55,062 nucleotides of DNA from a virus (Duplodnaviria > Caudoviricetes). Below, piece after piece: positions 6,820 to 54,164 of this stretch (its first letter is position 1; each line of letters opens with the position of its first letter). The notes below the pieces were generated by a model, which was given only the letters and a program-made list of their open reading frames with translations, did not search any database and was not told the DNA's origin. The DNA lies in the IMG/VR virus record IMGVR_UViG_3300020045_015842, positions 1 to 55,062 of that record; one strand, written 5' to 3'. A program made the translations under genes and the position numbers.

Positions 6820-7524
6820 ATGACTAATAAATATTGGGTTTATAAAATTACAAGTCCTTCTGGAAAAATTTATATTGGAATTACTTCTAATATAATAAAA
6901 AGATTTTGCTTCTATAGAAATAATTTTGATGAAAAGCAAACTATAATATATAATTCTATTAAAAAATATGGCTGGGATGCCCACATAAAAGAGATTTTAT
7001 ATATTTCTTTGTTTAAGGAAGAAGCAGAACAAAAAGAAATAGATTTGATTAAGTTTTATAAAAACAATAAAGTATCCTTAAATATTACTGATGGGGGTTT
7101 ATGTGCATCTAGTGCAAACTATATTGATCCAAGAGCTAAACAAGTTCTTCAATGTGATTTAGATGGTAATATTATTAAAGAATGGGAAAGTATTAATTCA
7201 ATAGAAATAATTTTAAACTTCTCATCTACAAATATAGGAAGGGTTTGCAGGAAAAAAACATTTTATCAACATGGATATTTATGGATATTTAAGAAAGATT
7301 TTGAAGATGGAATTGTGCCTATTTATACAGATAGAGTTACAACAAGAAAAGGAAAAGAAGTATTATTATTAAATTCAAAAAAAGAATTTATTAGAGAATA
7401 CAACTCTATAAAAGAAGCACTACGAACTTATTCTTTAAAAAATGTAAAAAGAAATATTTATAGAAGTTTAATACTTAAAATACAAGATAAAAATGGAAAC
7501 TATTGGGAATACAAAAATAAATGA
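6820..7524 (+). CDS. free-standing GIY-YIG homing endonuclease with NUMOD1-like repeats
   Basis: WVYKITSPSGKIYIG, downstream R, KEIDLI and LNITDGG; repeats VLQCDLDGNIIKEWESI and VLLLNSKKEFIREYNSI. Confidence 0.9.
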   Translation: MTNKYWVYKITSPSGKIYIGITSNIIKRFCFYRNNFDEKQTIIYNSIKKYGWDAHIKEILYISLFKEEAEQKEIDLIKFYKNNKVSLNITDGGLCASSANYIDPRAKQVLQCDLDGNIIKEWESINSIEIILNFSSTNIGRVCRKKTFYQHGYLWIFKKDFEDGIVPIYTDRVTTRKGKEVLLLNSKKEFIREYNSIKEALRTYSLKNVKRNIYRSLILKIQDKNGNYWEYKNK

Positions 7525-9432: not shown

Positions 9433-9993
9433 ATGAGTGAAATGAAAAGAGTTATCAAATTGAAGTTATTGTCGCAGAATGAATTAGTTAAAGTTGAAAC
9501 TTCAGCTAGAACATTTGGGGAGTTTAAAGCAGAAGTAGCCAATCTTGAAATTGATTGGACAAGTGTAAAGCTCATTGACAGGGCAAGTAAAGTATCTTAT
9601 AGTGAGCTTGATGCTGCTGTATTACCAGCTACAGATGCCATTATGTTTGTGATGCCTACAAAGAGTAAAGCTGGAGCCGATTTGTCTTACAAAGAAGCTA
9701 AAGAAGCTGTAAAACAGTATAAATTGAATGGTGGTAATGTTCCATTTAATTATACAAATGCTTCTACAGAACAGCTAAATAAATTTCTTGCTGGTGTAAA
9801 TGCAACACAAGAAGTAGCTAAAGAAGTTGAGGAAGGAAATGCTCCAGAAACTATTTTCCTTAAACCGGGTGTTTATACATTAGTAGTAGAAGGTGATGAA
9901 ATTAAAATGGGAGAAGAAGTTGAGTTAGTTGATGAAACAACTTTAGATGATTTACAGGCTGAAGCTGAGGCTTTGAAAAAAGTTTTGAAATAA
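9433..9993 (+). CDS. putative ubiquitin-like (beta-grasp) precursor with C-terminal extension
   Basis: N-terminal ~81 aa with strand-strand-helix (TFGEFKAEV)-strand pattern ending FVMPTKSKAG; sits upstream of E2, JAB and E1-like genes. Confidence 0.6.
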   Translation: MSEMKRVIKLKLLSQNELVKVETSARTFGEFKAEVANLEIDWTSVKLIDRASKVSYSELDAAVLPATDAIMFVMPTKSKAGADLSYKEAKEAVKQYKLNGGNVPFNYTNASTEQLNKFLAGVNATQEVAKEVEEGNAPETIFLKPGVYTLVVEGDEIKMGEEVELVDETTLDDLQAEAEALKKVLK

Positions 9994-10013
9994 GCTTTAA
10001 TATTTTATTAGAC

Positions 10014-10050
10014 AAGGGAAAGGAGAAATTCTTTCCCTTTTTTATTTTTA
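10014..10050 (+). terminator. intrinsic terminator after the Ubl gene
   Basis: AAGGGAAAGGA-GAAA-TTCTTTCCCTT plus T-tract. Confidence 0.8.
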
Positions 10051-10061
10051 AAACCAAAATT

Positions 10062-10394
10062 ATGAACCTAGAAAATATTAAATATATAGTTTTATTAGAT
10101 GTTTCTAATGAACTAAAAGAAATTATGCTTATTGCTGAACTTGCTTATGATGAAAAAGTAATTCCAACAATAATGTCAATTTTAGAAGAAGAAAGAAAAA
10201 ATAAAAAAGAACTTATTCTTGATATGAATGCTGAGCTATCTAGAGCACATGTTTATATTGAAATGAAGAAGGAAAATAAAACAGAACAAAAAGATTCTTT
10301 TAATAAAGAATTTGTTATTTCTGAAATTTCTAAATTCTATGAAAAATATAAAAATGTCATAGGACATTGTTTTAATAGATTTCCAAAAACTTAA
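10062..10394 (+). CDS. hypothetical protein
   Basis: ORF track. Confidence 0.7.
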   Translation: MNLENIKYIVLLDVSNELKEIMLIAELAYDEKVIPTIMSILEEERKNKKELILDMNAELSRAHVYIEMKKENKTEQKDSFNKEFVISEISKFYEKYKNVIGHCFNRFPKT

Positions 10395-10398
10395 AATT

Positions 10399-11562
10399 AT
10401 GCAAATACCAGAAGAATTAAATAAGCTTTCTGAAAAAGAGCTTAAAAAAATATTAAAGCCTAATATATTTGAAGCTAAATATATTATCAATAAAGAATAT
10501 AACAGAATATATGAAATTGAAGCTAAAATAGGAAAATATGTTTATCCTAAAGGAAGTAGAGACAGAATTTTTATTGGCAATTTACAAAGAAAAGATTATT
10601 ATGAGCCTCTTACATATGAATCATTACAAAGATTTAGAAAAGAAAATATTCTTACTAAAATTAATAATTGGATATATTCTCAATTTCAAAATTGGTGTAT
10701 AAGACAATTTAATGATGTATATGGAGAAGAATTTGTTAGTGTAGATGATAATTATGTCACTGTATGGTTTCCAGAAGTTACAATAAGTAATTCTATGGAA
10801 CAATCTCATATAATGAGAGACATATATCTAAAATTTTATATTGACAGTTCTCAAGTTAAATTAGAAGGACTTAAAAGAGGAACATTAACAGATGTTGAAA
10901 TAAGAAATTATTATACATTTTCTCATTGTAGTAATAATGAAAGAGTGTTTAGTTGGGCAGAATCATTTTGTTTTGGGTATACACAAATTGCAGATTTGAA
11001 AGATAATTTAAATACAAGATTAAAACTTGTTAAGAATTTAAGATTTTTCTTAGAAGCAATTAAAGAATATCTTTCTTGGGAATCTCTAGAAGGTGTTCCA
11101 TATAATAAAATTGACAATGTTATTTATGACAAAAATCTGTATACAGAATGTTCTACTAGTGGTTATGATTTAGAAGATTGTTTACTTACAGTGATGAATA
11201 ATATTGAAAATTTTACTTATAGTTTTAATTTTTATAACAGTGAATATTTTACATATTTATCAAATTCTTCTATAGAAGAAGTATCAAGTATTTTGGAAAA
11301 ATACTATCCAGAACAATTACTTCCTTGTTTAAATGGTGTTTCTGTTCAAAGAAATGTAATAGAAGAAGAGGAATATGATCATCCTCAATTTATTTGGTTT
11401 AAGAATGAATATAGACCATTTAAGCTTATTAAAACTAATTCTAGTGAAATAGACTTACCAAGAAAAATAAACACTAATTTGCTAAGTGAAGTAATAGAAC
11501 AAATACAATATAAATACAACGAATTTCTAAAACAAAAGAAAATAAATGACTACAAAGGTTAA
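10399..11562 (+). CDS. putative prokaryotic E2 (UBC-fold)-like protein
   Basis: YTFSH...SFCFG (Cys191) resembles the E2 H-P-N/H...C arrangement, followed by a helix LRFFLEAIKEYLSWES; gene context. Confidence 0.55.
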   Translation: MQIPEELNKLSEKELKKILKPNIFEAKYIINKEYNRIYEIEAKIGKYVYPKGSRDRIFIGNLQRKDYYEPLTYESLQRFRKENILTKINNWIYSQFQNWCIRQFNDVYGEEFVSVDDNYVTVWFPEVTISNSMEQSHIMRDIYLKFYIDSSQVKLEGLKRGTLTDVEIRNYYTFSHCSNNERVFSWAESFCFGYTQIADLKDNLNTRLKLVKNLRFFLEAIKEYLSWESLEGVPYNKIDNVIYDKNLYTECSTSGYDLEDCLLTVMNNIENFTYSFNFYNSEYFTYLSNSSIEEVSSILEKYYPEQLLPCLNGVSVQRNVIEEEEYDHPQFIWFKNEYRPFKLIKTNSSEIDLPRKINTNLLSEVIEQIQYKYNEFLKQKKINDYKG

Positions 11563-12646
11563 ATCACAAGAAATAGGAACAATTGGAAAACTAATTATTC
11601 CTAAAGAAATAGAAAATATGATTGATTTTCTTCATAAGTCTATTGGAGCAACAGAATGGAGTGGTATATTATTTTATAAAATGGTTGGTGGTGATATAAA
11701 TAAGCTTAATGCACTAGAATTCAAATGTGAATTTCTTTATCCCATGAATATTGGAACAAGTGCTTACACAGAATTTGATTATAATTCTGAAGTTATGAAT
11801 GCTTATGATCTTAAAGAAGAACTTATTGAGTGTTCAAGCGGTTTAATTCATTCTCATCACAAATTAGGATTTACAACATTCAGTGGTACAGACGTTTCCG
11901 AGCATATTGACAATGCCCAAAATTTTAATTATTATATTTCTTTAATAGTTGATTTTACAAAAGATTGGCATTGTAGAATTGCTTTTCCTTCTAAAACTAA
12001 AAATACATATGAACATCAAATTAAAAACTCTGAAGGGGAACTCGTAACAGCTATTCGTTCTATAGAAGAAGATAATATTATTATTGGCGAGCTTAATGTG
12101 GAATTTGAAAGTGTTGGTATTACACCAGAATGGTTAGATAAAAGAGTAAAAGAGCTTAAAGTTAAAAAAGCTACACCGAAAGTTTTTACACCTGTAACAC
12201 AAATTACTGGAAGAACATATCCTGCTATGACTAAAGTAATGGAACCTCTTAAAAGTTATAATGATTATGATGAATATAATGAAAATGATTTTGTAACTAG
12301 TTGGGTAAATAAGCAATCTATAAAATCTTCTAATGCTTTACCAACACCAAAAGAATTCTTAACAGCTTTAATCAGTTTAGATGAAACAGGAGCTAGTTTT
12401 GGGCTTGAAGGTGCTATTATGGGAATTGAATTATCATTTGATCAAGGAGAAGTAGATTTTGACACCTATGACACAGCTCTTTCTAATAATGTAGAAATTA
12501 TTCATGATGAAATTTATGGAAGCGATAGAATGTTTGCCACACATTGTAATATGGCACTCTCATTATTAGAAAATAATATACAAATGTTTTCAAATGAAAC
12601 AATTTATCAAATCATTAAAGAAAATTTAGAATTATATGCAAAATAA
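11546..12646 (+). CDS. JAB/MPN+ (JAMM) metallopeptidase
   Basis: Glu37 in EWSGILF and HSHHKLGFTTFSGTD matching E...HxH-x(7-8)-S-xx-D. Confidence 0.85.
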   Translation: MTTKVKSQEIGTIGKLIIPKEIENMIDFLHKSIGATEWSGILFYKMVGGDINKLNALEFKCEFLYPMNIGTSAYTEFDYNSEVMNAYDLKEELIECSSGLIHSHHKLGFTTFSGTDVSEHIDNAQNFNYYISLIVDFTKDWHCRIAFPSKTKNTYEHQIKNSEGELVTAIRSIEEDNIIIGELNVEFESVGITPEWLDKRVKELKVKKATPKVFTPVTQITGRTYPAMTKVMEPLKSYNDYDEYNENDFVTSWVNKQSIKSSNALPTPKEFLTALISLDETGASFGLEGAIMGIELSFDQGEVDFDTYDTALSNNVEIIHDEIYGSDRMFATHCNMALSLLENNIQMFSNETIYQIIKENLELYAK

Positions 12647-13307
12647 CGATTATAATAGTCGCTTTAAAGATGCTCCTTGGTATAATGAATGTACCAAGGA
12701 GAAAATCCTATTTGTAGGTATGGGGGGAATTGGTGGAAATGCAATGTATTGTCTTTCTAAAACTATTCCAGCTACATATTTTATAATGGATGCAGATATT
12801 GTAGAAGATATTAATATAGGCTGTCAATTTTTTAATAAGAATCAAATAGGAAAGAGAAAAGTAAATGCAATAGCAGAAACACTCAGTTCTTTTTCTACAG
12901 CACAAATAAATGTTATTCCTCAAAGATATTACAATGAATATACTCCTATTATGATTTCAGGTTTGGATAATATGGCTACAAGAAGAGAAATATTTGAAGA
13001 ATGGAAAAAACATGAGGATAGAGAATTGTTACTTGAAGGACGTTTGAGAGCGAATTTATATGAGGTTTATGTTGTTACAAAGGGAAGAGAAGAAGAATAT
13101 GAGAAAACTCTATTCAATGATTCTGAAACAGATGATGGCCCTTGTACATTTAAACAAACAGCATATTTTGGTATGCTAATAGGTGCAAGAATTACACATT
13201 GTTTAGTTAATTATTTAACTAATAAGTATTCTATAGAAGGAGATGTTTGTAGTCTTCCTTTTTTCATTAAAGAATTTGGTGAAGCTTTCTATATAGATGT
13301 ACAATGA
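12636..13307 (+). CDS. ThiF/MoeB/E1-like adenylating enzyme
   Basis: SRF Arg finger, GMGGIG, DADIVEDINIGCQ, GKRKV, GLDNMATR, candidate catalytic Cys in DDGPCTFK. Confidence 0.9.
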   Translation: MQNNDYNSRFKDAPWYNECTKEKILFVGMGGIGGNAMYCLSKTIPATYFIMDADIVEDINIGCQFFNKNQIGKRKVNAIAETLSSFSTAQINVIPQRYYNEYTPIMISGLDNMATRREIFEEWKKHEDRELLLEGRLRANLYEVYVVTKGREEEYEKTLFNDSETDDGPCTFKQTAYFGMLIGARITHCLVNYLTNKYSIEGDVCSLPFFIKEFGEAFYIDVQ

Positions 13308-13479
13308 CAAAAGAAGAAAAATTAAAAGAACAAATTATTATACTTAAAAATGAATTAAAAAAGTATGAGAAAGCTTATTATACATTAATCCCTTATTTTG
13401 ATTCTATTTCTGATGAGGAACAGGATATAGTTGCTAAAAAATTAACTAAAATTTTTAAAATTAAAACAACACCAAAAAA

Positions 13480-14076
13480 ATGAAACAATATATAAGAGCT
13501 GTAAATGGAAATATTCCTATTATATTACAAGGGAGAAACCTTGTAGAATATGAATTTAGGAATTGTGAATGGGTAAGTTTATCTTCTAAAGAATATCAAT
13601 TTAGATATACTTATATTACAGATAATGATCAATTTTATAAACACAGTGGTAATAAAAGACTTTATAAATATAAATTTGGAAGGGGACTTATTTATACACA
13701 ATATGATGATTTTCCTTGTGCTATAATTTGTGAGGATAAGAAAGTAGCTGTGTTAAAAAATTGGTCAAATAGTTATACAGTAGATTTTGGAAGATTTAAA
13801 AAAATGCTAAAAGAGAATGGTTATAATGTTAAAAAGAACATTACTTATTTAGATAATTTAGAAGGATTTTATTTTAATCCTCTTTCTCCTACTTTTTATG
13901 ATTATCAAGAAGAATATCAAAGAGAAGTTAGTAAAGAGTTTATTCTCTCTCAAAGACCTGTTGTTGTTTCTTCTGTAGAAGATAATATTGATAATGAGGC
14001 AAAAATTGAGATTGATGAAGTTCCTTTAACTAGAGAACAGGAGGAAGATTTATTTTTAGCATTTTTAGAACAATAA
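13480..14076 (+). CDS. hypothetical protein with acidic tail
   Basis: ORF track. Confidence 0.7.
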   Translation: MKQYIRAVNGNIPIILQGRNLVEYEFRNCEWVSLSSKEYQFRYTYITDNDQFYKHSGNKRLYKYKFGRGLIYTQYDDFPCAIICEDKKVAVLKNWSNSYTVDFGRFKKMLKENGYNVKKNITYLDNLEGFYFNPLSPTFYDYQEEYQREVSKEFILSQRPVVVSSVEDNIDNEAKIEIDEVPLTREQEEDLFLAFLEQ

Positions 14077-14305
14077 ATTATGGAAACACAATTAGTATTT
14101 AGCTCAGAATGGGTAAAAAACAAAAATGTTCTTATTTCTTCTATGGAATATGATTGTTTAGATGAAAAAAAAAGAATAGCACAAGAAGGTGCAATTATTC
14201 TTGCTATGAATATTAAACAAGCGAAAATTCGTGATTATGCCACACAACATGTTAAACCTGTTGTGAATAAGAGAATTAAGATTTAGATTTGTATTTCATA
14301 GGTTG

Positions 14306-14344
14306 TTCCCTGTTTCTATAGAAATATAGAAATGGGGAATTTTT
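14306..14344 (+). terminator. intrinsic terminator-like hairpin
   Basis: TTCCCTGTTTCTATA-GAAA-TATAGAAATGGGGAA followed by T-run. Confidence 0.65.
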
Positions 14345-25836: not shown

Positions 25837-26049
25837 TAAAATTAGTTCAATTAAAACCAAGTTAATTGACTGGAAACCCCTTAGAGCCTTATACACTCCT
25901 TACAACAGTAATGATTGTAATATAGTAAAAGAGATAAGGATTGGGCAATCAGCAGCCAAGCTTCCTGCTAGGAAGAAGGTTCAACGACTATCGAAACCAC
26001 ATAGTAATATGGAAGGGAGTAGAGTAAAGAAAGAAATTTCTTGAAACGC

Positions 26050-26080
26050 TTGGATAATTATAAATTTATTAGTACTATTG
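26050..26080 (+). promoter_or_regulatory. possible Bacteroidota-type promoter for the intron ORF
   Basis: TTG-N20-TACTATTG (one mismatch to TAnnTTTG), 23 nt before ATG 26104. Confidence 0.4.
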
Positions 26081-26103
26081 TAGTGAACTTTAAAACAATA
26101 GTC

Positions 26104-26862
26104 ATGTTAAAACTTTTTAGAATTTATTCATTAAGTCACCCTATAACAAAAGAGATAGGTTATATAGGGGCAACAACACTTTTATTAAATGTACGATATA
26201 GTCAGCATAAGCACAATGCATTAACAAAAAACCTAGATAGAAAAGTATATATCTGGTTTAGAGAAATTGTTGCAGAAGGTTTATTACCAGAGATAAAATG
26301 GATAGATACAGGTACAGAAGATAATTGGAAAGAAAAAGAGACTTTTTGGATTGAAAAGTATAAAAAAGCAAATAATGTGAGTAAGGGAGGATCAGGTATT
26401 GTTCTAAATAGAACATCTGAGAGTAAACAGAGAACAATAGATGCCCATAAAAAAGTAGTAGTATTACTAGATAAAAAATTTAAATTACTAGAGGAATTTT
26501 CTTCATTAAGAGAATTAGCAAAGTTTTTAAATGTGGGTATAACTGCAATATCAAATGCACTTAATATTAAAGGCACAAATAGCGTACAAGGATATATAGT
26601 GCTATTTAAAGAAGATTTTCTATCTGGAAATTTTATTAAAGAATATAAAGGAACATATAAAGATATTTACCAATATTCTTTAAATGGAGAATTTATTAAA
26701 AAATTCCCAAAAGTAGTTGATGCTTTAAGAGAAGTTAATCCTTGTAAATATTCAAGTGGATTATATGAAGCAGCAGATAGGAATGGAACTTGTGGAAAAT
26801 ATTATTGGTCTTTTGAATACTCTAATAACCTTTTACTAATGAAAAGTAATTATAAGATATAG
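26104..26862 (+). CDS. intron-encoded GIY-YIG homing endonuclease with NUMOD-like repeats
   Basis: RIYSL..IGYIGAT..RYSQH..KETFWI..NVSKGG; stop codon lies inside the S element. Confidence 0.88.
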   Translation: MLKLFRIYSLSHPITKEIGYIGATTLLLNVRYSQHKHNALTKNLDRKVYIWFREIVAEGLLPEIKWIDTGTEDNWKEKETFWIEKYKKANNVSKGGSGIVLNRTSESKQRTIDAHKKVVVLLDKKFKLLEEFSSLRELAKFLNVGITAISNALNIKGTNSVQGYIVLFKEDFLSGNFIKEYKGTYKDIYQYSLNGEFIKKFPKVVDALREVNPCKYSSGLYEAADRNGTCGKYYWSFEYSNNLLLMKSNYKI

Positions 26863-39564: not shown

Positions 39565-41427
39565 ATGGCCAAAAAAGTAAAGGAAGAAAAACAGGGTATA
39601 GATGCAGTATTAGAAGCCTTAGAAAATAAGTATGGTATGCAAAGAGCACCATTAACTGATATGACAATTGTAAGTACAGGGAGTATTCAATTGAATAGAG
39701 CTATGGGTATTGGTGGTACTGCTCTAGGGAAGATAATAGAGCTTCATGGTGAAGAAAGTTGTCTTTCTGGAGAGACATTCATTAGTTATGATGTATTTAA
39801 AAATGGTAAATGTATAAATAGTAAAGGGGGAACACTTTTACGTTTATGGGAAAGATTTAATAAAATTGTATATAAAAAACCGGGATGGCAATTTATAGAT
39901 TATGATGTTGATTATTTTGTAAAATCAAAAGATGAAAATAATGTAATTATTGGAAATAAAGTTTTAGCTGTAATAAAAACAGGAATAAAACCTGTATATA
40001 AACTTACTACAAAATCAGGTTTTGAAATAAAGACAACAGAAGATCATAAATTTTGTACTCTTAATGATGTATATGTAGAGTTAAAGGATTTAAAAATTGG
40101 AGATATTATTGTTACTCACCCAAATAAAAGAGTACATGGAAGAAAGAAAAATATTTGGAGAAAGGATGTAATGGTAAAAAATTATCCAAATAACAGAATA
40201 AAAATAGTTACAGAAAAAGCAACAGGAATTGAATATAAGTATAAAAGATTTCCTTTATCTCATCTTTATTACGAAGCTTATCTGAATAATTTGGCTATAG
40301 AAAATTGGAGAAATATTTTAAATTCTGATAATCCTAATTTCTCTGAGTATAAATTTATTCCTAAAGGATTTGAGATACATCATAAAGATGAAATACCTAC
40401 AAATAATTCAATAGATAATTTAGTACTATTAACTGCTTCTGATCATGGTAAATTACATGCTAAAGAAAGAATAAAAAATTTATCTTTTATTACAGATACA
40501 GATGAAATTATTTCAATTGAGTATTCTGGAGAAGAGGATACTTTTGATATTAAATGTGGCGATCCCTATCATAATTTTGTAGCTAATAAAATAGTAGTTC
40601 ATAATTGTGGAAAAACGACCTGTTCGTTGCATCAGATGGCTGAGTACCAAAAAGCTTTCCCAAATAAAAAAGTTGCTCTGTTAGATTTTGAAAACTCATT
40701 TGACAAAAAATATGCAGAAGCTATAGGGGTAGATGTTAGTAAGCTATTAATCTATCAGCCTGATAATCAAGAAATTGGCTATAATATGGCTATATCTTTA
40801 ATAGAAAAAGATATAGTTTCTTGTATTGTAATAGATAGTCAAAGTGCTGCTGCTCCCAAAGCAATTATTGATGGTGAAATGGGAGATAGTACTATTGGGT
40901 TACAAGCAAGAAATAATAGTAAATTTTGTATGAAAGTAAAGGGGCTTTTAAATATACATCAAGCAACTTTATTTATAATCTCACAAACAAGAAGTAATAT
41001 TGGTGGATATGATCCCACTGTAATTACAGGAGGTAAAGCTTTTAAATTTTATGCTGATGCTAGATGGAAAGTATGGAAAATGAATGATAAAGAACATGAA
41101 TTAAATAAAACTACTATTGATGTTATAAAAAATAAAATGGGAAATCCTTTTGGTCAAGCAAAAATAAATATTTTGTGGGGAATTGGATTTGATAAGATTG
41201 GGGAAATAGTAGAATATGCTTGTGATTTTAAAATAATCCAAAAGGGTGCTGCAGGATGGTTTACAATTGAGGGTCAAAAAGTTCAAGGATTAGAAAAAAT
41301 GAGAGAATTATTAAATGATAATCCTGAATTGTTTGATGAAATAGAAAGAAAAGTATTTGAACAATTATCTGCTGTACCAGAAGAACTAGATTTAGAAACA
41401 ATTATTGAACCAGAAGGAAATGAATAA
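39565..41427 (+). CDS. recA: RecA recombinase containing an intein (338 aa after splicing)
   Basis: STGSIQL..GIGG..GKIIELHGEES|CGKTT, DFEN, IVIDS, GLQAR, ISQTR, GGKAFKFYA, KNK. Confidence 0.95.
   Translation: MAKKVKEEKQGIDAVLEALENKYGMQRAPLTDMTIVSTGSIQLNRAMGIGGTALGKIIELHGEESCLSGETFISYDVFKNGKCINSKGGTLLRLWERFNKIVYKKPGWQFIDYDVDYFVKSKDENNVIIGNKVLAVIKTGIKPVYKLTTKSGFEIKTTEDHKFCTLNDVYVELKDLKIGDIIVTHPNKRVHGRKKNIWRKDVMVKNYPNNRIKIVTEKATGIEYKYKRFPLSHLYYEAYLNNLAIENWRNILNSDNPNFSEYKFIPKGFEIHHKDEIPTNNSIDNLVLLTASDHGKLHAKERIKNLSFITDTDEIISIEYSGEEDTFDIKCGDPYHNFVANKIVVHNCGKTTCSLHQMAEYQKAFPNKKVALLDFENSFDKKYAEAIGVDVSKLLIYQPDNQEIGYNMAISLIEKDIVSCIVIDSQSAAAPKAIIDGEMGDSTIGLQARNNSKFCMKVKGLLNIHQATLFIISQTRSNIGGYDPTVITGGKAFKFYADARWKVWKMNDKEHELNKTTIDVIKNKMGNPFGQAKINILWGIGFDKIGEIVEYACDFKIIQKGAAGWFTIEGQKVQGLEKMRELLNDNPELFDEIERKVFEQLSAVPEELDLETIIEPEGNE
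39760..40605 (+). mobile_element. 282-aa intein with HNH endonuclease
   Basis: Block A CLSGET, block B TTEDHKF, block F TFDI..HNFVAN, block G VVHN|C; HHKDEIPTNNSIDNL..H..LH. Confidence 0.95.
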
Positions 41428-41848
41428 AAGACTTGAAATAGCAATTGATTTTGATGGAACATGTACTACACATGAGTTCCCTAGAGTAGGTAAGGATATT
41501 GGTGCTGTTCCTTTAAAGAAATTAGTAAATGCAGGACATAAACTAATTTTATTTACTATGAGAAGTGATAGACCTGAATTTAATGAAACTAATAATCCTG
41601 AAATTGAAGATGTAGTAGGAATGTTTCTTACAGATGCTGTAAATTGGTTTAAGGATAATGATATTCCTTTATATGGAATACAGCAAAATCCTCAACAAGG
41701 TTGGACTACTTCTCCAAAATGTTATGCACATCTTTATATAGATGATGCTGCACTAGGGTGTCCTTTAAAATTTACAGAATTATCCTCAAGACCATATGTA
41801 GATTGGGAAAAAGTAGACAAGCTATTAACAGGAGATTTGTATGAATAA
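41420..41848 (+). CDS. HAD-superfamily phosphatase-like protein
   Basis: IAIDFDGT, LFTMR, K..YIDD. Confidence 0.8.
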   Translation: MNKRLEIAIDFDGTCTTHEFPRVGKDIGAVPLKKLVNAGHKLILFTMRSDRPEFNETNNPEIEDVVGMFLTDAVNWFKDNDIPLYGIQQNPQQGWTTSPKCYAHLYIDDAALGCPLKFTELSSRPYVDWEKVDKLLTGDLYE

Positions 41849-42308
41849 TCCTATAGAATATATAGAGAAATGTACATTAGAGGATTTATTAAAATTTAGA
41901 GAGGGTACTGTTTCTATAGAAGGGGTTAATAGTACAAGATGGGAAGATTTGGTTTATATTGCTTATGAGTTTATTGGTTATGCGGAATGGAAAATTGCTA
42001 AAGATTTTAATATATCAGAAGCAACTATTCGTGTACAATTAAGAAGAACAAGAGAAAGATATAATATTTCTTCAGACAAGATTGATGATTTAATGCGAGA
42101 AATATGTTATTGGAAATATAAACAATTAGGACTTTCTACAAATAAAGAAATAATTCAATATACAATAGAAGGAAAAGAAGTGGAAAGATATAAAAATATT
42201 AAACAAGCTTCTGAATTAACAGGATTTCATAAAAGTGGAATTGGTAATTGTATTAATGGAAGACAACAAACAGCTAATAATTATAAATGGAAATTAGCAA
42301 ATGAATAA
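41841..42308 (+). CDS. HTH plus NUMOD1-domain DNA-binding protein
   Basis: IAKDFNISEATIR; IIQYTIEGKEVERYKNIKQASELTG..ANNYKW. Confidence 0.7.
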   Translation: MNNPIEYIEKCTLEDLLKFREGTVSIEGVNSTRWEDLVYIAYEFIGYAEWKIAKDFNISEATIRVQLRRTRERYNISSDKIDDLMREICYWKYKQLGLSTNKEIIQYTIEGKEVERYKNIKQASELTGFHKSGIGNCINGRQQTANNYKWKLANE

Positions 42309-43020: not shown

Positions 43021-43314
43021 ATGACAAAACCATTTAAAAAATTATTAGGGAATAGAGTGTATTTAAATATGCCTACAATTGCAGAGAGTAATATTATTCT
43101 TTCTGAAGAAGTAAAGAAATCTATTATTGCTTCAGAGCAGGATAAATTTCAGAAATTAAAAGTATATGCTAAAGGAGATTTGGTTACTATTGTTGAAGAA
43201 GGTGATGAAGTATTAGTACATCCCGGAATTTTAGCTAATGCTTTAGTAGTTCCTCTGAATAAGGAAATTAGTGTTATTTTAGTTAATAGTCTGGATATTA
43301 TACAAGTATGGTAG
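43021..43314 (+). CDS. GroES-like co-chaperonin
   Basis: KLLGNRVYL..IIL..KVYAKG..EGDEVL..DII, size ~97 aa. Confidence 0.65.
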   Translation: MTKPFKKLLGNRVYLNMPTIAESNIILSEEVKKSIIASEQDKFQKLKVYAKGDLVTIVEEGDEVLVHPGILANALVVPLNKEISVILVNSLDIIQVW

Positions 43315-44081
43315 AAGAAAAGAAAATAGGAATTGTAATTCTTGGAACAAATGCTTATTTCTGCTTAATGGTGAGGTTTGTAAAGAGGTTTATACAATTT
43401 TATAAAGGAAACAGGAAAATTAAATTTTTCCTGTTTTCTGATTTATCCCCAAAAGATTATTTACCTGAAGGAATAGATTATCAATTCATCTATGTTACTA
43501 ATAATAATTGGGTTGATGGTACTAATTTGAAATTTACAAGTATTCTTACACTCTCAGAACAATCTGATATTGAGTATCTTACATATTTTGATGCAGATAC
43601 TAATGTAAGTAAACCTTTTACTGAAGATTGGTTTATTGGAGAATTAGTAGGAGGGCAGCATTATGCAGATCAAAGTTGGATGAAAGAAAAGAAAGGATAT
43701 GATAGAAATCCTCTTTCAAAAGCTTATATTCCTCTTAATACTAAACTACCACAAACATATTATTATGGAGCGTTCTTTTCTGCAGAGAGAGAGAGAATGA
43801 TGAAATTTTGTGAAGAATTATTGTGGGGGCAAATTGAAGATAAGAAGATTAACTACGAAGCCTGTACAAACGATGAGTCGCATATTCAGAGGTACTTTCA
43901 CTATAAACCACCTACAAAAATTGTTAAAACAGAGGAATTTATGTTTGATATTTCTGATAAAGGGGGAATTGGAGAAACTAGAGATGTGAATTTAGATGTT
44001 AGTAAAATTAAAGAAGATTTACTTCTATATAAGAATGATAATATTAATATTAGAGATGGTAAAATAATTAAAGAATGCTAG
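43308..44081 (+). CDS. GT6-family glycosyltransferase
   Basis: IGIVILGT..Y, FLFSD, YFDAD, YYYGAFF, DESH..RYF. Confidence 0.8.
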   Translation: MVEEKKIGIVILGTNAYFCLMVRFVKRFIQFYKGNRKIKFFLFSDLSPKDYLPEGIDYQFIYVTNNNWVDGTNLKFTSILTLSEQSDIEYLTYFDADTNVSKPFTEDWFIGELVGGQHYADQSWMKEKKGYDRNPLSKAYIPLNTKLPQTYYYGAFFSAERERMMKFCEELLWGQIEDKKINYEACTNDESHIQRYFHYKPPTKIVKTEEFMFDISDKGGIGETRDVNLDVSKIKEDLLLYKNDNINIRDGKIIKEC

Positions 44082-45482: not shown

Positions 45483-46064
45483 CAAAAGATAAACAATTAA
45501 AATTATTAGAAGGGGCTAAAGTATTTGAATATTTAAATTGGAAACAATTGTTAACCATTACTTACTGGAGTTTATTTAATTCTACTAAAATTAAATATTT
45601 CTTTAAACAATTAGATCTAGGTAAAGCAGCCATATTTGCTTATACAGATACTAAAAATATAATGAAAGAAAATTAAAAACATGTTTTAAAACATATTTAT
45701 GGAAGAAACAAGAAAAGAATTAGAACAAAAAGCTTCTAAATTGTTAGATGAAATCTCTTCTAAAGAGGAAATAAAAGAACAATTAAAACAAGCAATGATA
45801 GATTTATTAATATTTGGTAAAGCTGAATTTGTCTATAAAGAAGAGGAGAAAACACAATGACGATTTGGTTTAGTAGAAAATTCAATGGTGTTAAAAAATA
45901 TTGTAGTAAATCTATATCTTTTAACTTTCATCCTCAACATTGGAAATTATTATTGTGTAAAACTAATGGAGCCAAGAAAGGAAGAATGGAAGATACTTGT
46001 TATAACTTAAATATCCATTTCTTAGGAATATTTCTTAGTTATGCAAATTGGGATTATAACAGAT

Positions 46065-46107
46065 AAAAAATAAATGCTCCTTCTATATAAAAAATAGAGG
46101 GAGCATT
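46065..46107 (-). terminator. terminator at the convergence of the two transcription units
   Basis: AATGCTCCTTCTAT/ATAGAGGGAGCATT stem with an A-tract on its left (U-tract on -). Confidence 0.75.
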
Positions 46108-46269
46108 GATCAAAGGATACTATCCAGAGAGGGGCTTATTTTGAAAGTCTCTTTTTGGAAAGAGGACTTTGTGGACTTTTACCTTTAGAAGGAGCCAACT
46201 TTTCATTCATAAAGTTTGGCTTCTTCTTATTTGGAGAAGATACAACTGGAGCTTTCTTTGGTTGCTGTT

Positions 46270-46413
46270 TCATTTCTTTTTAAATAAAGATTTAATTTTT
46301 TCAATCATCTTTTTACCAAATATAACAATTTTTTCTCCAAGAGTTGAATTATTTCTAAATACTAATGCACCAATAATAAATGCAATTAAATGGGTAATTA
46401 TTAATAAAATCAT
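46270..46413 (-). CDS. 47-aa membrane protein with basic tail
   Basis: Hand translation MILLIITHLIAFIIGALVFRNN...KSLFKKK. Confidence 0.55.
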   Translation of the reverse strand: MILLIITHLIAFIIGALVFRNNSTLGEKIVIFGKKMIEKIKSLFKKK

Positions 46414-46428
46414 AATAAATGTTTTAAG

Positions 46429-46500
46429 TTATTTTTTCTTTGTGTGTCCACCGCATTTCATACTTGGTTTTGGTGTTGCTTTACTTCCTACTTTTTTCAT
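46429..46500 (-). CDS. 23-aa basic peptide
   Basis: MKKVGSKATPKPSMKCGGHTKKK with A-rich leader. Confidence 0.45.
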   Translation of the reverse strand: MKKVGSKATPKPSMKCGGHTKKK

Positions 46501-47003
46501 AATAATTAATTTTTTTATTCATCATCACAACTAAAATAAATATTTGCATTAAAAGCATTATTCTGTATAAATTTTATACTATCATATGCTTCTTTTCTAT
46601 CATCATATCCTTTTGATGTATAAATAACAAGAGTGGTTTCATTATTTATTATTTGAGAATAATATTTAATTCTACTAAACCAACTTCCTTTTGTTATTAC
46701 TTCAAATTTTAGAGGACATTTCATAAGTTTATCTTAAAAGAGATTGTTCCACTTGACTTTATACTCTTTGAAATATCAAGTCTAATACTAAACATGTTAT
46801 GAAATTTAATCAATTCCTGTATAAGCATATTATTATATTTAGGGTGACTTGCTATGAGCCTAAAGGAATAGTGCTCAGGAAATTTATAAATTTCTAATTC
46901 CGCATACTCATCAACGCTTTCCAAAATCCCATGAAGTTGAGCGAAGAAAACTTCGTCATTATCATTAAGAATTTCTGGAAAGAATTGATAAACAATTTGC
47001 ATA

Positions 47004-47408
47004 TTAAGATAGAGTTAATAAATATTTGCATTTTGCACCTTCACCAGAAAGGGCATCTGCCATATTGCATACATCATGATAACTATTAGCTTCTCCATAT
47101 TTTTTTAATTCACCTGCAAAAGTCATTAAATCTGTAACAACATTTACAGGAGGGAGATTAGTTAATGGATCAATTTTAAAAACTGTAGGTCTACGTCCTG
47201 TATATCCCATAATTTTTTCTATAATTTGATCCTTAAAATCATGTACATAATCATATAAAGAACCCAAACACATATGAGTGGCATAACTACTAGTCTGCCA
47301 ATGTAATAAATGCAATTGCTCATGAAAAAACGTAAGCTTTCCAGCAATTGACTCCAATGTTAAAACGTTAACATTCATCATTTCTTCAGGGAATAATGAT
47401 TTTGCCAT
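47004..47408 (-). CDS. ferritin/Dps-like protein (DUF5856-like)
   Basis: LHLLHWQT..YATH..L..LYD..D.IIE, YLLTL terminus. Confidence 0.75.
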   Translation of the reverse strand: MAKSLFPEEMMNVNVLTLESIAGKLTFFHEQLHLLHWQTSSYATHMCLGSLYDYVHDFKDQIIEKIMGYTGRRPTVFKIDPLTNLPPVNVVTDLMTFAGELKKYGEANSYHDVCNMADALSGEGAKCKYLLTLS

Positions 47409-47520
47409 GATTAGGTTTTCTTACTTGCTACTTTATTTAAATACTCTAATTTTTTTAGTATCTCATAGAGTAAAATCTCATTCTGACTCCAATTAATTTC
47501 TCTATTCATATACAGAAGTA

Positions 47521-47709
47521 TTAAGTTGGAGTTAAAGTTGTACTTTCAGTACAGCAAATATTATTAGGTATTTCTACCCAATTATTTCCTTTAGGAGGAG
47601 TTCTTCTTGCAACCATACTTCCGGGAATAAGTCTTTTATTACCATCATATCTAGCCCATACACGAAGTGTATCATCAGTTCTATTTACTGGAATTGGAGA
47701 AGTTGCCAT
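47521..47709 (-). CDS. small probable virion protein, paralogue B
   Basis: RYDG.KRLIPGS...P..NW.EIP..CC plus Thr-rich tail. Confidence 0.7.
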   Translation of the reverse strand: MATSPIPVNRTDDTLRVWARYDGNKRLIPGSMVARRTPPKGNNWVEIPNNICCTESTTLTPT

Positions 47710-47711
47710 AA

Positions 47712-47876
47712 TTAGTCAGGGTTTAAAGTAGTTGTTGTTGTACAGCATTGATATGTAGGGGCCTCTATCCATTTTCCTACTTTAGGCATTTTTCTCCTTA
47801 GAATTAATGAACCAAGAACCACTCGGCCTTGCCCATCAATTCTATAGAATGCTTTCAGATCTTGTTTGTTTGGCAT
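47712..47876 (-). CDS. small probable virion protein, paralogue A (54 aa, not in ORF track)
   Basis: MPNKQDLKAFYRIDGQGRVVLGSLILRRKMPKVGKWIEAPTYQCCTTTTTLNPD. Confidence 0.7.
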   Translation of the reverse strand: MPNKQDLKAFYRIDGQGRVVLGSLILRRKMPKVGKWIEAPTYQCCTTTTTLNPD

Positions 47877-48025
47877 TTCTAATTAATTTAAATTGTGAAT
47901 AAAAATTTCTCTTATTTAATAATAAGACCAAATTTAAAATTCTTAACAATTGCTTGTTATAAATTTTTATTCAATCTAGTTTTATATAATAGTTTTGGTT
48001 CAAATAGTGCAAAAAGGTGAACTAT

Positions 48026-49744
48026 TTAAGGAGCTACATAATCCTCGATTTTAACTTCATAAAATCTAAGTGTATCTGACGTTCTAGTAAAGTTTTGACC
48101 ACCCCCACAGGTATATATCTTGTTGTTATGAACACAAGTCGCTGCACCTAATAACGCATAAGGAGCGTCCGCCTTTCGAGTCCATGTATTTGTTTCAGTA
48201 TCGTACTCATATATTGCCTTCGTATAACTTGATAGTGAATCAGATGGCCCGCCAGACACCCCCCCGATCGCATAAATTTTATTCCCAATTGCCACAACGT
48301 CACGATAACATGCTCCAACTGGAATTGCTGCCATTGTTGACCATGTATTTAAGGCTATATCATAAGCAAAACACTCTGTTGTTGCGTCTATCGTGCTGTC
48401 TGGTGCATGATAACCTGTTATTGCGGCACTTATGGCATAAATTTTACCATTACAATAACATCCAAAATTCCCGGTTTCCTTAGTGTTTGGCATGTTTGCA
48501 CCAGAAGACCATGAGTCTGTTTCAACATCATAGATCTCAAGTTTATTAGTTGGCGATCCAGCCGAAGTCACTCCGCCAAAGCAATATATTTTTCCGTCAT
48601 GAACAGCAGAGCCACAATCTTCTCTGGCAGTTGTCATTGATGCTTTTTGGATATATGTATCTGTTTCTGGTGTATATTCAAATACTTCGCCAGTTACACC
48701 ACCCCCAGCACTTTTTAAACCACCGATAAAATATAATTTATCACCAACCTGATTGACAACTGCACTCTGTCTTGCTGCTTCTGTAAACGGCAAATCATTT
48801 TTAATTGTCCATTTATCGGTCAGTATATTATAAGCATATACTCTTTTATTGATACCACCAAAAGCATAAATACTGTTGTTGATTCCGATTAACGAATGCT
48901 GTTGTTTAAAGTAAGGTAGCGGTGCTAATCCTACGTGAGAATGAGTATCTCCCACATAATAGCAATACTTTGATAATATTCTATTTACAGTATTTTTCTG
49001 TTCATCTGTCAGACCTTTTGATGCAAAAAAGCAACCACAATATTCTGAAAAAAATGTCTGAATTGTTTCACCATTTCGTCTTGCTAACAATACCATGTCA
49101 ATAGATGGTATTTGCGTAGATAATATGGTTTCAGTGAGAATATTTTTTTGATTATGTTGATACTTTATTTCATTGTCCACCACCCTACTTCCAATATGTG
49201 TTCCTGAATAAGTGGCTAATGTCGGATTTGATGCAAAAGCTGATTGATTAATTCCAACTGTCGGAGTATTACCAATCATATATAATTTATGAGTTCCTCT
49301 TGCACTTATTACCTCACCAGTGGGAGTATTCCCTGTTTCAATGAAATAACCAATTGCAGCACTATTTAATGTCAATGCTTCCGCATCGTTGGCAGGATTA
49401 TAGACGGGTCTTATATGTCCGGTAAGACCATCGCTTTTGAACCCTTTATAAGGCTGAAAATCTAATGTACCAACTTCCAATAAATCATGCGCTCTTTTTA
49501 CAAGGTTTCTTTTTTGAATTTCAGCCGTACCTCCCGGCAAATAAAGTAAATCAAATCCATCTACTAAAGTCTCTATTTCAAGTTCGCTTTTAAGACTTTG
49601 AATAACCCAATCAACTAAATTTTTATCTTTCGTTGAAGGCTGAACCGCTAATCCACCGATATATGTTTTTAATTCTGCGGAATAACTCAAATTTGACCCT
49701 TGTGTACCTAAACTACTACTAAATACTGATGATAACGCTCCCAT
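48026..49744 (-). CDS. Kelch-repeat beta-propeller protein, probably virion/tail-associated
   Basis: About six IY.(F/I)GG...Y....W repeats in the C-terminal half. Confidence 0.85.
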   Translation of the reverse strand: MGALSSVFSSSLGTQGSNLSYSAELKTYIGGLAVQPSTKDKNLVDWVIQSLKSELEIETLVDGFDLLYLPGGTAEIQKRNLVKRAHDLLEVGTLDFQPYKGFKSDGLTGHIRPVYNPANDAEALTLNSAAIGYFIETGNTPTGEVISARGTHKLYMIGNTPTVGINQSAFASNPTLATYSGTHIGSRVVDNEIKYQHNQKNILTETILSTQIPSIDMVLLARRNGETIQTFFSEYCGCFFASKGLTDEQKNTVNRILSKYCYYVGDTHSHVGLAPLPYFKQQHSLIGINNSIYAFGGINKRVYAYNILTDKWTIKNDLPFTEAARQSAVVNQVGDKLYFIGGLKSAGGGVTGEVFEYTPETDTYIQKASMTTAREDCGSAVHDGKIYCFGGVTSAGSPTNKLEIYDVETDSWSSGANMPNTKETGNFGCYCNGKIYAISAAITGYHAPDSTIDATTECFAYDIALNTWSTMAAIPVGACYRDVVAIGNKIYAIGGVSGGPSDSLSSYTKAIYEYDTETNTWTRKADAPYALLGAATCVHNNKIYTCGGGQNFTRTSDTLRFYEVKIEDYVAP

Positions 49745-50256
49745 TAGTTGTAAACTTTGATATTAATTTCCTGTTCATCTAGTATTCCATCTGTTAATAC
49801 ATCAGATGAATTATAAGTCTTTAGAGTTATAGTAGTAGCACTTGTCCATTCAATTGTTATTTTATTTCCTGCAACATCATTTATAGTATTTATTTTATTA
49901 GGAACTGTTTTATTCTCTATAAATAAATTACTAGAAAGAAATGTATATGTGCCTGCAGCACTCCTTGTTAATGCAACAACTCCTAATGTATTTAATAATG
50001 GTATAACAGTAGGAGCATCTGTAGAAGATTGAGAGACAAATAGTGAATATTCCTTATATTTAACTTCTGGAATATCATTTAATGTTGCTAATGGATTTGA
50101 TGTGGAGGGATTATTTGCCTCCTGTATAGCAGAAATTTCATTAGTTGTTAATGAAGATGCTGGGACAATGTCTCTAATTAAATCATCCAGATTTAAATAG
50201 TTTTCAAAGCCTCGTTTAAGCTTAGTCCAGTATCCGGTTTTAATGTACGTTGGCAT
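49744..50256 (-). CDS. probable structural protein
   Basis: Thr/Ser/Asn-rich beta composition, late-unit position. Confidence 0.5.
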   Translation of the reverse strand: MPTYIKTGYWTKLKRGFENYLNLDDLIRDIVPASSLTTNEISAIQEANNPSTSNPLATLNDIPEVKYKEYSLFVSQSSTDAPTVIPLLNTLGVVALTRSAAGTYTFLSSNLFIENKTVPNKINTINDVAGNKITIEWTSATTITLKTYNSSDVLTDGILDEQEINIKVYN

Positions 50257-50295
50257 TTTATTAATTATTAAATTGTTAATATTATTGCTATAAAG

Positions 50296-51315: not shown

Positions 51316-51331
51316 GTATAGTTTAAATATT

Positions 51332-53059: not shown

Positions 53060-53061
53060 GC

Positions 53062-53718
53062 TTAATTATTTAAAGATACAATAGGAACTCTTTGATAATT
53101 AGTAGAAATAGTTCCAAGAGTTGCTGGCATTACCCCAGAGACTGCTGAATTAGCTGCTGTTCCCTGAATCCTTGTATCAGCATCAAAAGCAGTTGAACCA
53201 TAGGCGTATAAGCACATAACCTTAATCGTATTAACTGAATTTGAATATGCAATCCAATACCATCCAGGAGTTAAAGTAGTGGCAGTAACATTAGATGTTA
53301 TTACTCCCGGACTTGCAGCAGAAACAGATTCTACAGCAACCAATTTAGTGGTTTTTAACTCATCATAAACTGCCCAACTTATCGTCTCCCCTGCTGCTTC
53401 GGTTGTAATATGAAAAGAAAAATTATTTACAGTTAGTGTAAATGGAATAAAGAATTTTGCAGCATATACTGTATTTGCCACCATTGCATCTCCTTCAGAA
53501 AAGGATATCCCCAATGCAGTAACTCCAACTGGAGCAACATACTTTACACCAGTTACTGTATTGGCTTTATTTAGAAGTAAGGAATCAACTTCTGCTGCTG
53601 TATATCCTAATACCCCATCAGAAATCTTAAATCTATTATCTAACTCTTCATGTAGTGTTGGATTTGCTGGTTTATCTCCTTGAATATCCCTAATTCTGCG
53701 TACTGCTGGTATTGTCAT
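53062..53718 (-). CDS. probable structural/fibre-associated protein
   Basis: YTAAEVDSLL spacer, beta-sandwich-like TLTPGWYWIA. Confidence 0.5.
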   Translation of the reverse strand: MTIPAVRRIRDIQGDKPANPTLHEELDNRFKISDGVLGYTAAEVDSLLLNKANTVTGVKYVAPVGVTALGISFSEGDAMVANTVYAAKFFIPFTLTVNNFSFHITTEAAGETISWAVYDELKTTKLVAVESVSAASPGVITSNVTATTLTPGWYWIAYSNSVNTIKVMCLYAYGSTAFDADTRIQGTAANSAVSGVMPATLGTISTNYQRVPIVSLNN

Positions 53719-53729
53719 ATTAATATTTT

Positions 53730-54107: not shown

Positions 54108-54131
54108 AATGAATTTATTTTAAATATATTA

Positions 54132-54163: not shown

Positions 54164-54164
54164 T

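Follow-up and report, generated by a model that had tools for sequence, protein, structure and literature searches.

We asked whether four adjoining genes on a viral contig encode a pathway by which a phage activates a ubiquitin-like protein (Ubl) of its own and conjugates it to other proteins, or whether they serve some other chemistry. The contig is IMG/VR record IMGVR_UViG_3300020045_015842, a stretch of 55,062 bases estimated to be approximately 48% complete, which was analysed over its whole length and is called the window below. The genes encode, in order, a Ubl precursor, an E2-like protein, a JAB/JAMM metalloprotease and an E1 enzyme (Table 1), so that each of the four component types of a Ubl cascade is represented, and the genes are translationally coupled. 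What we observe directly is this gene set, its conserved order, the fold or family assignment of its products and a series of invariant residues. We assign a probability of roughly 0.6 to the reading that the four genes, here called the cassette, constitute a phage-encoded pathway for Ubl activation and conjugation that is made in the replication (middle) phase of infection. In the available part of the source consulted, the prokaryotic Ubl/E1/E2/JAB operons characterised to date (Bil, CBASS type II and Bub) are antiphage systems of bacteria (PMC11601596); here, such a gene set stands on the virus side.

The four open reading frames (ORFs) that the original prediction had named were recovered at the same coordinates in the ORF list, and a script found the residues that it had singled out in place. 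These are Gly81 (9673-9675) followed by Ala82 in the Ubl precursor, His176 and Cys191 (10969-10971) in the E2-like protein, Glu37, His102, His104, Ser113 and Asp116 of the JAMM motif in the JAB protein, and Cys170 (13143-13145) in the E1, which contains no CxxC. The four genes occur in the same order in all eight close IMG/VR loci. In a wider IMG/VR survey built on the E1 alignment, for which the best 80 of 288 E1 relatives were taken (eight being the same contigs as in the close set), the order was found in 73/80 loci by hidden Markov model (HMM) search at E ≤ 1e-3 and in 74/80 once one further locus was added with the heuristic filters off. At the remaining six loci, the contig ends inside or just before the cassette. 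The complete set is also present in each of the seven named phages: FpV4, bajarodcaudo virus 1, PhiCrAssBcn22, cr128_1 and Kolpuevirus 'frurule' (5/5), together with crAss001 (Gp79, Gp78, Gp77 and Gp76) and DAC15 (genes 91-88; 2/2). The expectation that similar genes recur in crAss-like phages was thus right, and the synteny survey establishes that the four-gene order is kept across phages. Since the genes and their key residues are conserved across distant relatives, the four-gene observation is more than chance.

In this phage lineage, which is large and abundant, the four genes form a fixed block. By tblastn, the E1 was found in 74 of 50,697 GenBank phage records (29 Flavobacterium, 29 Bacteroides, 12 uncultured and four others), among them crAss001, DAC15, the PhiCrAssBcn phages and FpV4, and a DNA-level search of GenBank phages with the cassette gave no match. 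No E1 relative was present in 72,556 plasmids. A pattern scan of 185,579 species-level cellular genomes returned one 2.4-kb contig from a metagenome-assembled genome (MAG) for the E1, for which few peptide patterns were used, and no match for the E2-like protein, for which one peptide pattern was usable. The E1-bearing contig (RZZN01000224.1, 2396 bases, 57% identity), which is assigned to a Gammaproteobacteria MAG bin, is probably a phage fragment caught in that bin. Public records label parts of the cassette as 'thiamine biosynthesis protein' (the E1), 'metalloprotease domain containing protein' or 'hypothetical protein', and a search of BFVD gave uncharacterised phage proteins only.

The genomic setting is that of DNA replication. 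In the Steigviridae, the block lies between the genes for DNA primase and uracil-DNA glycosylase, and in the window the genes for PolA, a DnaB-like helicase and RecA are found downstream of it. The genes for replication, recombination and nucleotide metabolism in crAss001 are described as 'middle' genes whose expression starts 10-30 min post infection (PMC8375218 and PMC10136315, each available in part). The label 'early region' that the original prediction had given to the locus is therefore wrong, because the crAss001 replication module that holds the cassette belongs to this middle class (PMC8375218).

The Ubl precursor was modelled with AlphaFold2 from a 65-sequence alignment. The mean predicted local distance difference test score (pLDDT) in blocks of ten residues was 86-94 over residues 1-70 and 78 over residues 71-80, and the elements follow in the order strand, strand, helix, strand, strand. 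Foldseek searches of the PDB returned UBL, UBX and ubiquitin domains at target-normalised template-modelling (TM) scores of approximately 0.7, with four matches at E ≤ 1e-3. In a VIA-wide comparison, which is independent of Foldseek, 31 chains reached Z ≥ 8, the top match being the UBX domain of UBXD7 (Z 9.4, root-mean-square deviation [rmsd] 2.3 Å over 74 residues), and all 50 of the listed rows are ubiquitin-type beta-grasp structures by title. Residues 1-75 of ubiquitin (8q7r_U) align with residues 6-81 of the model, and Gly81 therefore falls at the position of the C-terminal glycines of ubiquitin. This residue is kept in 8/8 close loci, in 65/65 sequences of the alignment, in 67/68 distinct IMG/VR sequences (the remaining one has a gap) and invariantly in the seven named phages, and it is followed by Ala in 55/68 distinct sequences. 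Residues 1-81 are thus clearly predicted to form a ubiquitin-type beta-grasp that ends at Gly81, as had been proposed from the sequence.

The identity of the JAB protein comes from its family. The window JAB itself has no Pfam match even at E ≤ 1 and none in PADLOC or NCBIfam, and its profile found nothing meaningful among PDB sequences. Among its aligned relatives, 44/67 match Pfam Prok-JAB (PF14464) at E ≤ 0.01 (best 4.6e-7). Among the 120 relatives listed, four carry precomputed PF14464 assignments and two were named RPN8/RPN11 by JGI, and the neighbouring Atlas clusters carry PF14464 and PF01398. The JAMM motif is nearly invariant, with Glu37 in 71/73, His102 in 72/73, and His104, Ser113 and Asp116 each in 73/73 distinct sequences, and the assignment of this gene as a JAB peptidase stands. 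The catalytic domain gives way to a helical C-terminal part of approximately 170 residues, to which no family was assigned.

Beyond Gly81, the tail of the Ubl precursor has predicted helices at residues 86-98, 112-134 and, as the last, 171-185. Its first part and last helix are conserved, and this conservation reaches the crAss001-like phages. Such a layout (Ubl, Gly and a second conserved domain) matches that of the tail assembly protein I of phages such as lambda and T1, which lies beside a JAB peptidase predicted to cut at the conserved Gly (Iyer et al., 2006; PMC1779556, available in part). The cassette could accordingly be devoted to processing, as in the pairing of lambda tail assembly protein I with the JAB domain of protein K. 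The Ubl would then be an intramolecular chaperone or docking domain, the cut at Gly81 would free a functional C-terminal fragment, no conjugation would take place, and the cut would be regulated by the E1 and the Cys191 protein unless these two have unrelated functions. This account is made improbable by the E1, which always accompanies the Ubl/JAB pair and retains its ATP-site residues and its Cys in 74/74 sequences, a conservation that processing leaves unexplained because it involves no activation of a C-terminus. The lambda and T1 pairs, moreover, belong to the tail module and come without an E1 or E2, whereas the cassette always has both and lies in the replication module, and no NlpC/P60 domain was detected by Pfam in the four proteins.

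The E1 was assigned with greater directness. Pfam ThiF (PF00899) matches residues 20-192 at 42.2 bits against a cut-off of 28.1 (E 6.7e-11), and PF00899 is present in all 120 relatives among the matches listed, which upholds the original assignment. In NCBIfam, the window protein is placed at the level of the superfamily and reaches none of the curated families, scoring 42.7 against 159 bits for ThiF (PRK08644), its best match, and 32.6 against 144.75 bits for PRTRC_ThiF. Among 39 E1 relatives, all 39 match each of the ThiF, thiF_fam2, PRTRC_ThiF and adenyl_thiF models (best 4e-13, for PRTRC_ThiF), and 29 to 38 match the MoeB, Cap2-type and SAMP-E1 models. Gly28, Gly30, Gly31, Asp52, Asp54, Asp111, Asn112 and Arg116, which we take to be the columns of the E1 ATP-site motifs, are each kept in 74/74 distinct sequences, as is Cys170. 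The E1 had been described as having a lone Cys; in fact, it has six (residues 19, 39, 63, 170, 189 and 205), of which only Cys170 is invariant (74/74). The conservation of Cys170 suggests that it could be the thioester site. As a separate observation, the E1 carries an N-terminal extension of approximately 50-150 residues in the Steigviridae and bajarodcaudo virus 1 (the HMM match begins at residue 50 to 151 in six such loci), which the 223-amino-acid E1 of the window does not have.

The resemblance to ThiF raises the possibility of a sulfur carrier. After exposure of Gly81 by the JAB protein and adenylation by the E1, the Ubl would receive a thiocarboxylate and donate its sulfur to the modification of a nucleic acid or cofactor, with the Cys191 protein as a relay. 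The systems that such a scheme would resemble are ThiS/ThiF, MoaD/MoeB, CysO/Mec+ and TtuB/TtuC. The best curated matches of the E1 are indeed ThiF and MoeB models, public records name it for thiamine biosynthesis, it is a single small domain of a size similar to ThiF and MoeB, its presumed substrate is a beta-grasp with a C-terminal Gly as in ThiS and MoaD, and the cassette is set among nucleic-acid enzymes. However, the scores fall far below all the ThiF and MoeB equivalog cut-offs (as in the 42.7 against 159 bits given above). No thiamine or molybdopterin gene was found by Pfam in the 62 window ORFs (8 + 54), as had been noted from the sequence, and no rhodanese, cysteine desulfurase, PP-loop thiolase, ThiG/H or MoaA/E was found in these ORFs, which represent about half of the genome. 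No such partner is annotated beside the cassette in the seven named phages either. In structure, the Ubl was matched to ubiquitin, UBX and UBL domains, with no ThiS or MoaD chain by title among the 50 neighbours listed, although this is suggestive only, and NCBIfam found no ThiS, MoaD or PRTRC_C match in 65 Ubl relatives. The cassette also adds a JAB gene and a gene for a protein of likely E2 fold, and the known sulfur-carrier systems have no role for a conserved E2-fold protein. We consider a sulfur carrier unlikely, and a thiamine or molybdenum-cofactor role specifically was set aside in view of the missing partner genes and the scores below the equivalog cut-offs.

A different chemistry is suggested by structural databases. 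A profile of eight E1 relatives matched 51 distinct PDB sequences at E ≤ 1e-3, including MccB, UBA5, SAE2, UBA1/6, NAE, ThiF and MoeB at 1e-8 to 1e-4, and also PaaA, TcdA and Uba4. MccB ties with UBA5 as the best match (1.7e-8), and the E1 might accordingly drive a reaction on the Ubl C-terminus other than conjugation, such as a cyclisation of the MccB/PaaA type or the attachment of a nucleotide, with the Cys191 protein as an accessory enzyme or Cys-His hydrolase. These matches are confined to the shared N-terminal region that binds the nucleotide (profile positions 14-117), and a PDB search with the C-terminal half by itself gave no match. In addition, the substrate would be a folded ubiquitin-type domain of 81 residues in place of a short peptide, and no other peptide-maturation genes were found by Pfam in the window. 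We regard this alternative as very improbable, and a role of the MccB type known from ribosomally synthesised and post-translationally modified peptides was rejected on account of the match being limited to the shared Rossmann part.

The E2-like protein belongs to a very large family. A profile search of 1.84 billion representatives (50%-identity clusters) gave a family of 3,089 members at E ≤ 1e-3 and 2,751 at E ≤ 1e-10. His176, Cys191, Glu228, Ser229, Gly232 and Pro234 are invariant in 85/85 aligned sequences, and His176 and Cys191 are kept in 69/71 distinct IMG/VR sequences, the other two having gaps. The core and the C-terminal domain (residues 247-387) are conserved in the crAss001-like homologues; the N-terminal domain (residues 1-90) is not. 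An AlphaFold2 model built from 85 sequences (pLDDT 94.9, predicted TM score 0.85) shows, within residues 93-226, a helix, antiparallel strands at 113-116, 119-130, 136-148 and 153-164, a loop, and helices at 196-202 and 207-226. His176 and Cys191 both lie in the long loop between strand 153-164 and helix 196-202. The UBC core has the same order of elements, with the catalytic Cys within the loop that follows the strands. VIA-align comparison with 48,161 chains gave 29 matches at Z ≥ 5 and none at Z ≥ 8; the best is the Leishmania E2 1yf9_C (Z 6.3, rmsd 4.4 Å, 130 residues aligned), and 35 of the 50 listed rows are E2/UBC, UEV or RWD domains by title, the others including Mediator subunits, frataxin, Spt6, RnlA and a transposase. 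A second structure search agrees, with the TSG101 UEV domain at Z 6.0, UBE2A at Z 5.9 and the E1-E2 protein Cap2 at Z 4.5. At the level of sequence, the E2-like profile found nothing meaningful in the PDB, PF14460 found none in the window, and the nearest lead is a weak one, a viral Atlas cluster with 14% Prok-E2_D (score 0.80). Of the proposed E2 identity, the moderate fold match and the invariant Cys and His have thus held up, and a sequence match to a known E2 family has not been found.

Several observations weigh against a conjugation pathway. The structural matches of the E2-like core stay below Z 8, a range in which, as the tool warns, a common arrangement of elements alone may account for a match, and it is for this reason that we rate a UBC-like fold of the modelled core as likely only. 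A Foldseek search of the PDB with the whole E2-like model gave no match at E ≤ 1e-3, and 0/85 members of the family match an E2 model in Pfam (E ≤ 0.1), PADLOC or NCBIfam. The HPN motif is absent, and in its stead there is a conserved Ser175-His176 that lies 15 residues before Cys191; the placement of Cys191 at an E2 active site in the model is putative. Bacterial E2-like proteins that depart from HPN were noted by Iyer et al. (PMC1779556). The E1 is of just 223 amino acids, without an evident domain of the kinds known to recruit E2s, its best curated matches are ThiF models and all fall below the cut-offs, and Cys170 is placed only putatively on the E1 crossover loop. The tail of the Ubl precursor (residues 82-186) is partly conserved and therefore not simply a disposable propeptide. 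The cassette has no known E3 or target, and the window covers only about 48% of the genome.

The chemical steps, direction of transfer and targets that we infer for the conjugation pathway would be as follows. The Ubl gene would be transcribed in excess, because the hairpin that follows it would allow only part of the transcripts to read through into the enzyme genes. The JAB protein would cut the 186-residue precursor after Gly81, giving an 81-residue Ubl with a C-terminal Gly and a 105-residue helical fragment. The minimal E1 would adenylate Gly81 with ATP and probably form a thioester on Cys170, and the Ubl would then pass to Cys191 of the E2-like protein with the aid of His176. From there, it would be transferred to lysines on proteins of the host or of the phage itself; the N- and C-terminal domains of the E2-like protein may select the substrate, no E3 being evident. 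The JAB protein may also reverse the conjugation. In its fullest form, the proposal is that virulent crAss-like phages run a complete Ubl-tagging cascade of their own during genome replication, with an E2 of a new family and an E1 smaller than any other known to act in conjugation, and thereby modify host or phage proteins. We hold this fullest form to have slightly less than an even chance of being correct.

The arrangement of the operon is in keeping with such a pathway. From the coordinates, the start of each gene overlaps the stop of the one before by 17 nucleotides (E2-like/JAB), 11 (JAB/E1), 4 (E1/orf59) and 4 (orf59/orf198), and orf68 starts 3 nucleotides past the end of orf198. The description of the locus as four near-adjacent genes holds for the last three, which overlap, and fails for the first, which is separated from the E2-like gene by orf110 and a terminator-like hairpin. 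Between positions 8500 and 15200, two terminator-like hairpins were observed against 0.9 ± 1.0 expected. A sigma-70 promoter scan gave no signal (40 sites against 47.7 ± 7.3 expected). Among the spacers between the Ubl and E2-like genes of relatives, 33 of 49 distinct sequences fold at ≤ -6 kcal/mol with a T run of ≥ 5, and the stem sequences differ between lineages. This count is a lower bound, because the simple ORF caller placed some starts inside the hairpin loop: several of the 16 spacers that fail are 20-34 nucleotides long, with an ATG chosen within the loop (as seen in L050 compared with L042). The hairpin at the end of the Ubl gene could possibly be an attenuator that sets a high ratio of Ubl to enzymes, and its conservation in this place fits a tag needed in bulk and enzymes needed in small amounts.

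Previously described systems offer points of comparison, and by the tests run the cassette appears to belong to none of Bil, CBASS, PRTRC and Bub. Iyer, Burroughs and Aravind (2006) predicted bacterial operons of Ubl, JAB, E1 and E2 genes and, separately, the phage tail Ubl with its JAB (PMC1779556); Bil, CBASS type II and Bub are described as bacterial conjugation systems in the accessible part of PMC11601596. The closest in composition is Bil (BilA Ubl, BilB E2, BilC JAB and BilD E1), or operon type 6d, which has the same four protein kinds encoded together; its Ubl requires a C-terminal Gly or already ends in one, and its Cys protein has the E2 fold that is likely for the E2-like protein of the cassette (PMC1779556, PMC11601596). 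Bil is bacterial and antiphage, whereas the cassette is found in virulent phage genomes, with the single MAG contig as its sole cellular match and no plasmid match. Its E1 is a single domain, in contrast to the IAD-AAD-CYS architecture given for the Bil E1 (PMC11601596). BilD is the only Bil model matched by the cassette (4e-4 over 98 residues of the E1), 0/85 E2-like relatives match BilB, the window Ubl, E2-like and JAB proteins match no PADLOC model, and the only related PADLOC matches of the JAB relatives are to models named 'JAB'.

CBASS type II (Cap2, Cap3) would share the chemistry of E1, E2 and JAB with the cassette. The N-terminal region of the cassette E1 matches PADLOC 'E1-E2' models, including Cap2, down to 4.4e-7, and the structures matched by the E2-like core include Cap2 (7tqd_B), at an rmsd of 3.8 Å over 113 residues (Z 4.5). 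Cap2 is an E1-E2 fusion and the CBASS substrate is a CD-NTase, whereas in the cassette the E1 and E2-like proteins are separate and the substrate would be a true beta-grasp Ubl; no nucleotidyltransferase or effector was found by Pfam in the window.

These likenesses raise the possibility that the cassette, by the same chemistry, interferes with host immunity that relies on Ubl-type conjugation. The JAB protein would strip host conjugates, such as the primed CD-NTase of CBASS type II or phage proteins that carry the Ubl of Bil, and the phage Ubl, E1 and E2-like protein would compete with the host machinery or mis-charge it, an explanation that rivals ours as to role and not as to mechanism. Host systems with the same four protein kinds are antiphage, at least in the portion of PMC11601596 available, the N-terminal part of the E1 weakly matches the PADLOC models for Cap2 and BilD, and a few JAB relatives match CBASS JAB models (≤ 4/67 for any one model). 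Nonetheless, the cassette is fixed in the replication module over very distant phages and hosts (Bacteroides, Flavobacterium and environmental). Counter-defence genes are usually variable accessory genes, and we think it unlikely that this is the role of the cassette.

PRTRC (NCBIfam TIGR03734-TIGR03742) is likewise borne by mobile elements and includes a ThiF-type protein, and PRTRC_ThiF is one of the four NCBIfam models that all 39 E1 relatives match. The cassette E1 nonetheless scores well below the cut-off of that model (32.6 against 144.75 bits), 0/85 E2-like and 0/65 Ubl relatives match PRTRC models (PRTRC_B among them), no ParB was found by Pfam in the window, and the window JAB, scanned as a single protein, has no NCBIfam match. 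In the literature, PRTRC occurred in titles and abstracts among the matches listed with other subjects only. Membership of Bil, CBASS or PRTRC was accordingly rejected on the sequence comparisons. Bub (6E/DUF6527) is a diverged bacterial pathway of E1, E2 and Ubl with a peptidase, as in the cassette, and its example indicates that cascades of this type can work with atypical catalytic residues; it differs in using Tyr/Ser oxyesters and the serine protease BubE, whereas the cassette has an invariant Cys in both enzymes and a JAMM peptidase (PMC11601596, in part).

We found no published description of the cassette as a pathway in the Creative Commons-licensed papers of PMC and in bioRxiv, a scope that leaves subscription papers and supplementary tables outside. 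The text of a 2023 review of the Crassvirales contains none of the words 'thiamine', 'ThiF' and 'metalloprotease', and the nearest literature is a 2026 preprint that mentions in passing a gut-phage protein family resembling UBA5. The cassette can be understood as a phage-side version of the known Ubl/E1/E2/JAB logic; it is conserved, and a pathway is plausible. The prediction is directly testable in cultured phages, because cultured phage-host pairs exist, and could show a benefit of tagging proteins during phage replication and add a new E2 family. If the fullest form of the proposal were true, Ubl conjugation would be a phage weapon and extend beyond bacterial defence, and Gp79-Gp76 of crAss001 would offer a tractable system in which to find the first targets.

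Table 1. Coordinates of the cassette and of other features of the 55,062-base window.
Feature	Position	Strand	Description
Ubl precursor gene	9433-9993	+	186 aa; residues 1-81 (9433-9675) predicted beta-grasp to Gly81; residues 82-186 helical tail
Terminator-like hairpin	10014-10039	+	11-bp stem followed by T run, directly 3' of the Ubl gene
orf110	10062-10394	+	110 aa, between the Ubl and E2-like genes; lineage-specific
E2-like gene	10399-11562	+	387 aa; UBC/UEV/RWD-like core likely at approximately 91-246 (10669-11136)
JAB/JAMM metalloprotease gene	11546-12646	+	366 aa; catalytic domain approximately 14-191, then helical C-terminal part
E1 gene	12636-13307	+	223 aa; single ThiF-like domain, Cys170
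orf59	13304-13483	+	59 aa
orf198	13480-14076	+	198 aa; frequent fifth gene
orf68	14080-14286	+	68 aa
Second terminator-like hairpin	14305-14340	+	3' of orf68
Homing-endonuclease-type ORF	6820-7524	+	
Homing-endonuclease-type ORF	26041-26862	+	
RecA gene	39565-41427	+	620 aa; interrupted by intein with HNH endonuclease
Homing-endonuclease-type ORF	41841-42308	+	
Glycosyltransferase gene	43308-44081	+	family-6 homologue
Minus-strand block	46000-55062	-	
Kelch-repeat protein gene	48026-49744	-	571 aa

The operon continues beyond the E1 gene through orf59, orf198 and orf68, up to the second hairpin. Family-profile scans gave no assignment for these three ORFs. A homologue of orf198 lies directly 3' of the E1 gene in 6/8 close IMG/VR loci, and orf198 may be a fifth member of the cassette. 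The crAss001-like phages have a hypothetical gene of different size at the corresponding position. As for orf110, blastp and jackhmmer found no homologue in related loci, and no family in Pfam, PADLOC or NCBIfam matched it at better than E 0.005. It was set aside as a cassette member, being absent from the loci of relatives, and it is probably not part of the conserved cassette. Since all the related loci examined lack an equivalent, orf110 has the appearance of a recent arrival in an operon that is fixed in other respects.

The plus strand holds nearly all genes up to approximately 46 kb, with a G+C content of 24-29%. The intein in RecA is evident from Pfam matches to RecA in two stretches (3.2e-54), Intein_splicing (4.7e-16) and HNH_3 (2.7e-10). 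The homing-endonuclease-type ORFs, with GIY-YIG and, twice, NUMOD1 matches, are scattered through the replication module, which suggests a heavy traffic of selfish elements there. At approximately 46 kb, the coding strand switches and the GC skew changes sign. Beyond this point, the minus-strand block contains the Kelch-repeat protein and large ORFs without a family match, which are possibly structural genes. On the plus strand, the replication/accessory region also contains the family-6 glycosyltransferase homologue, which matches Pfam Glyco_transf_6 at 2.3e-18.

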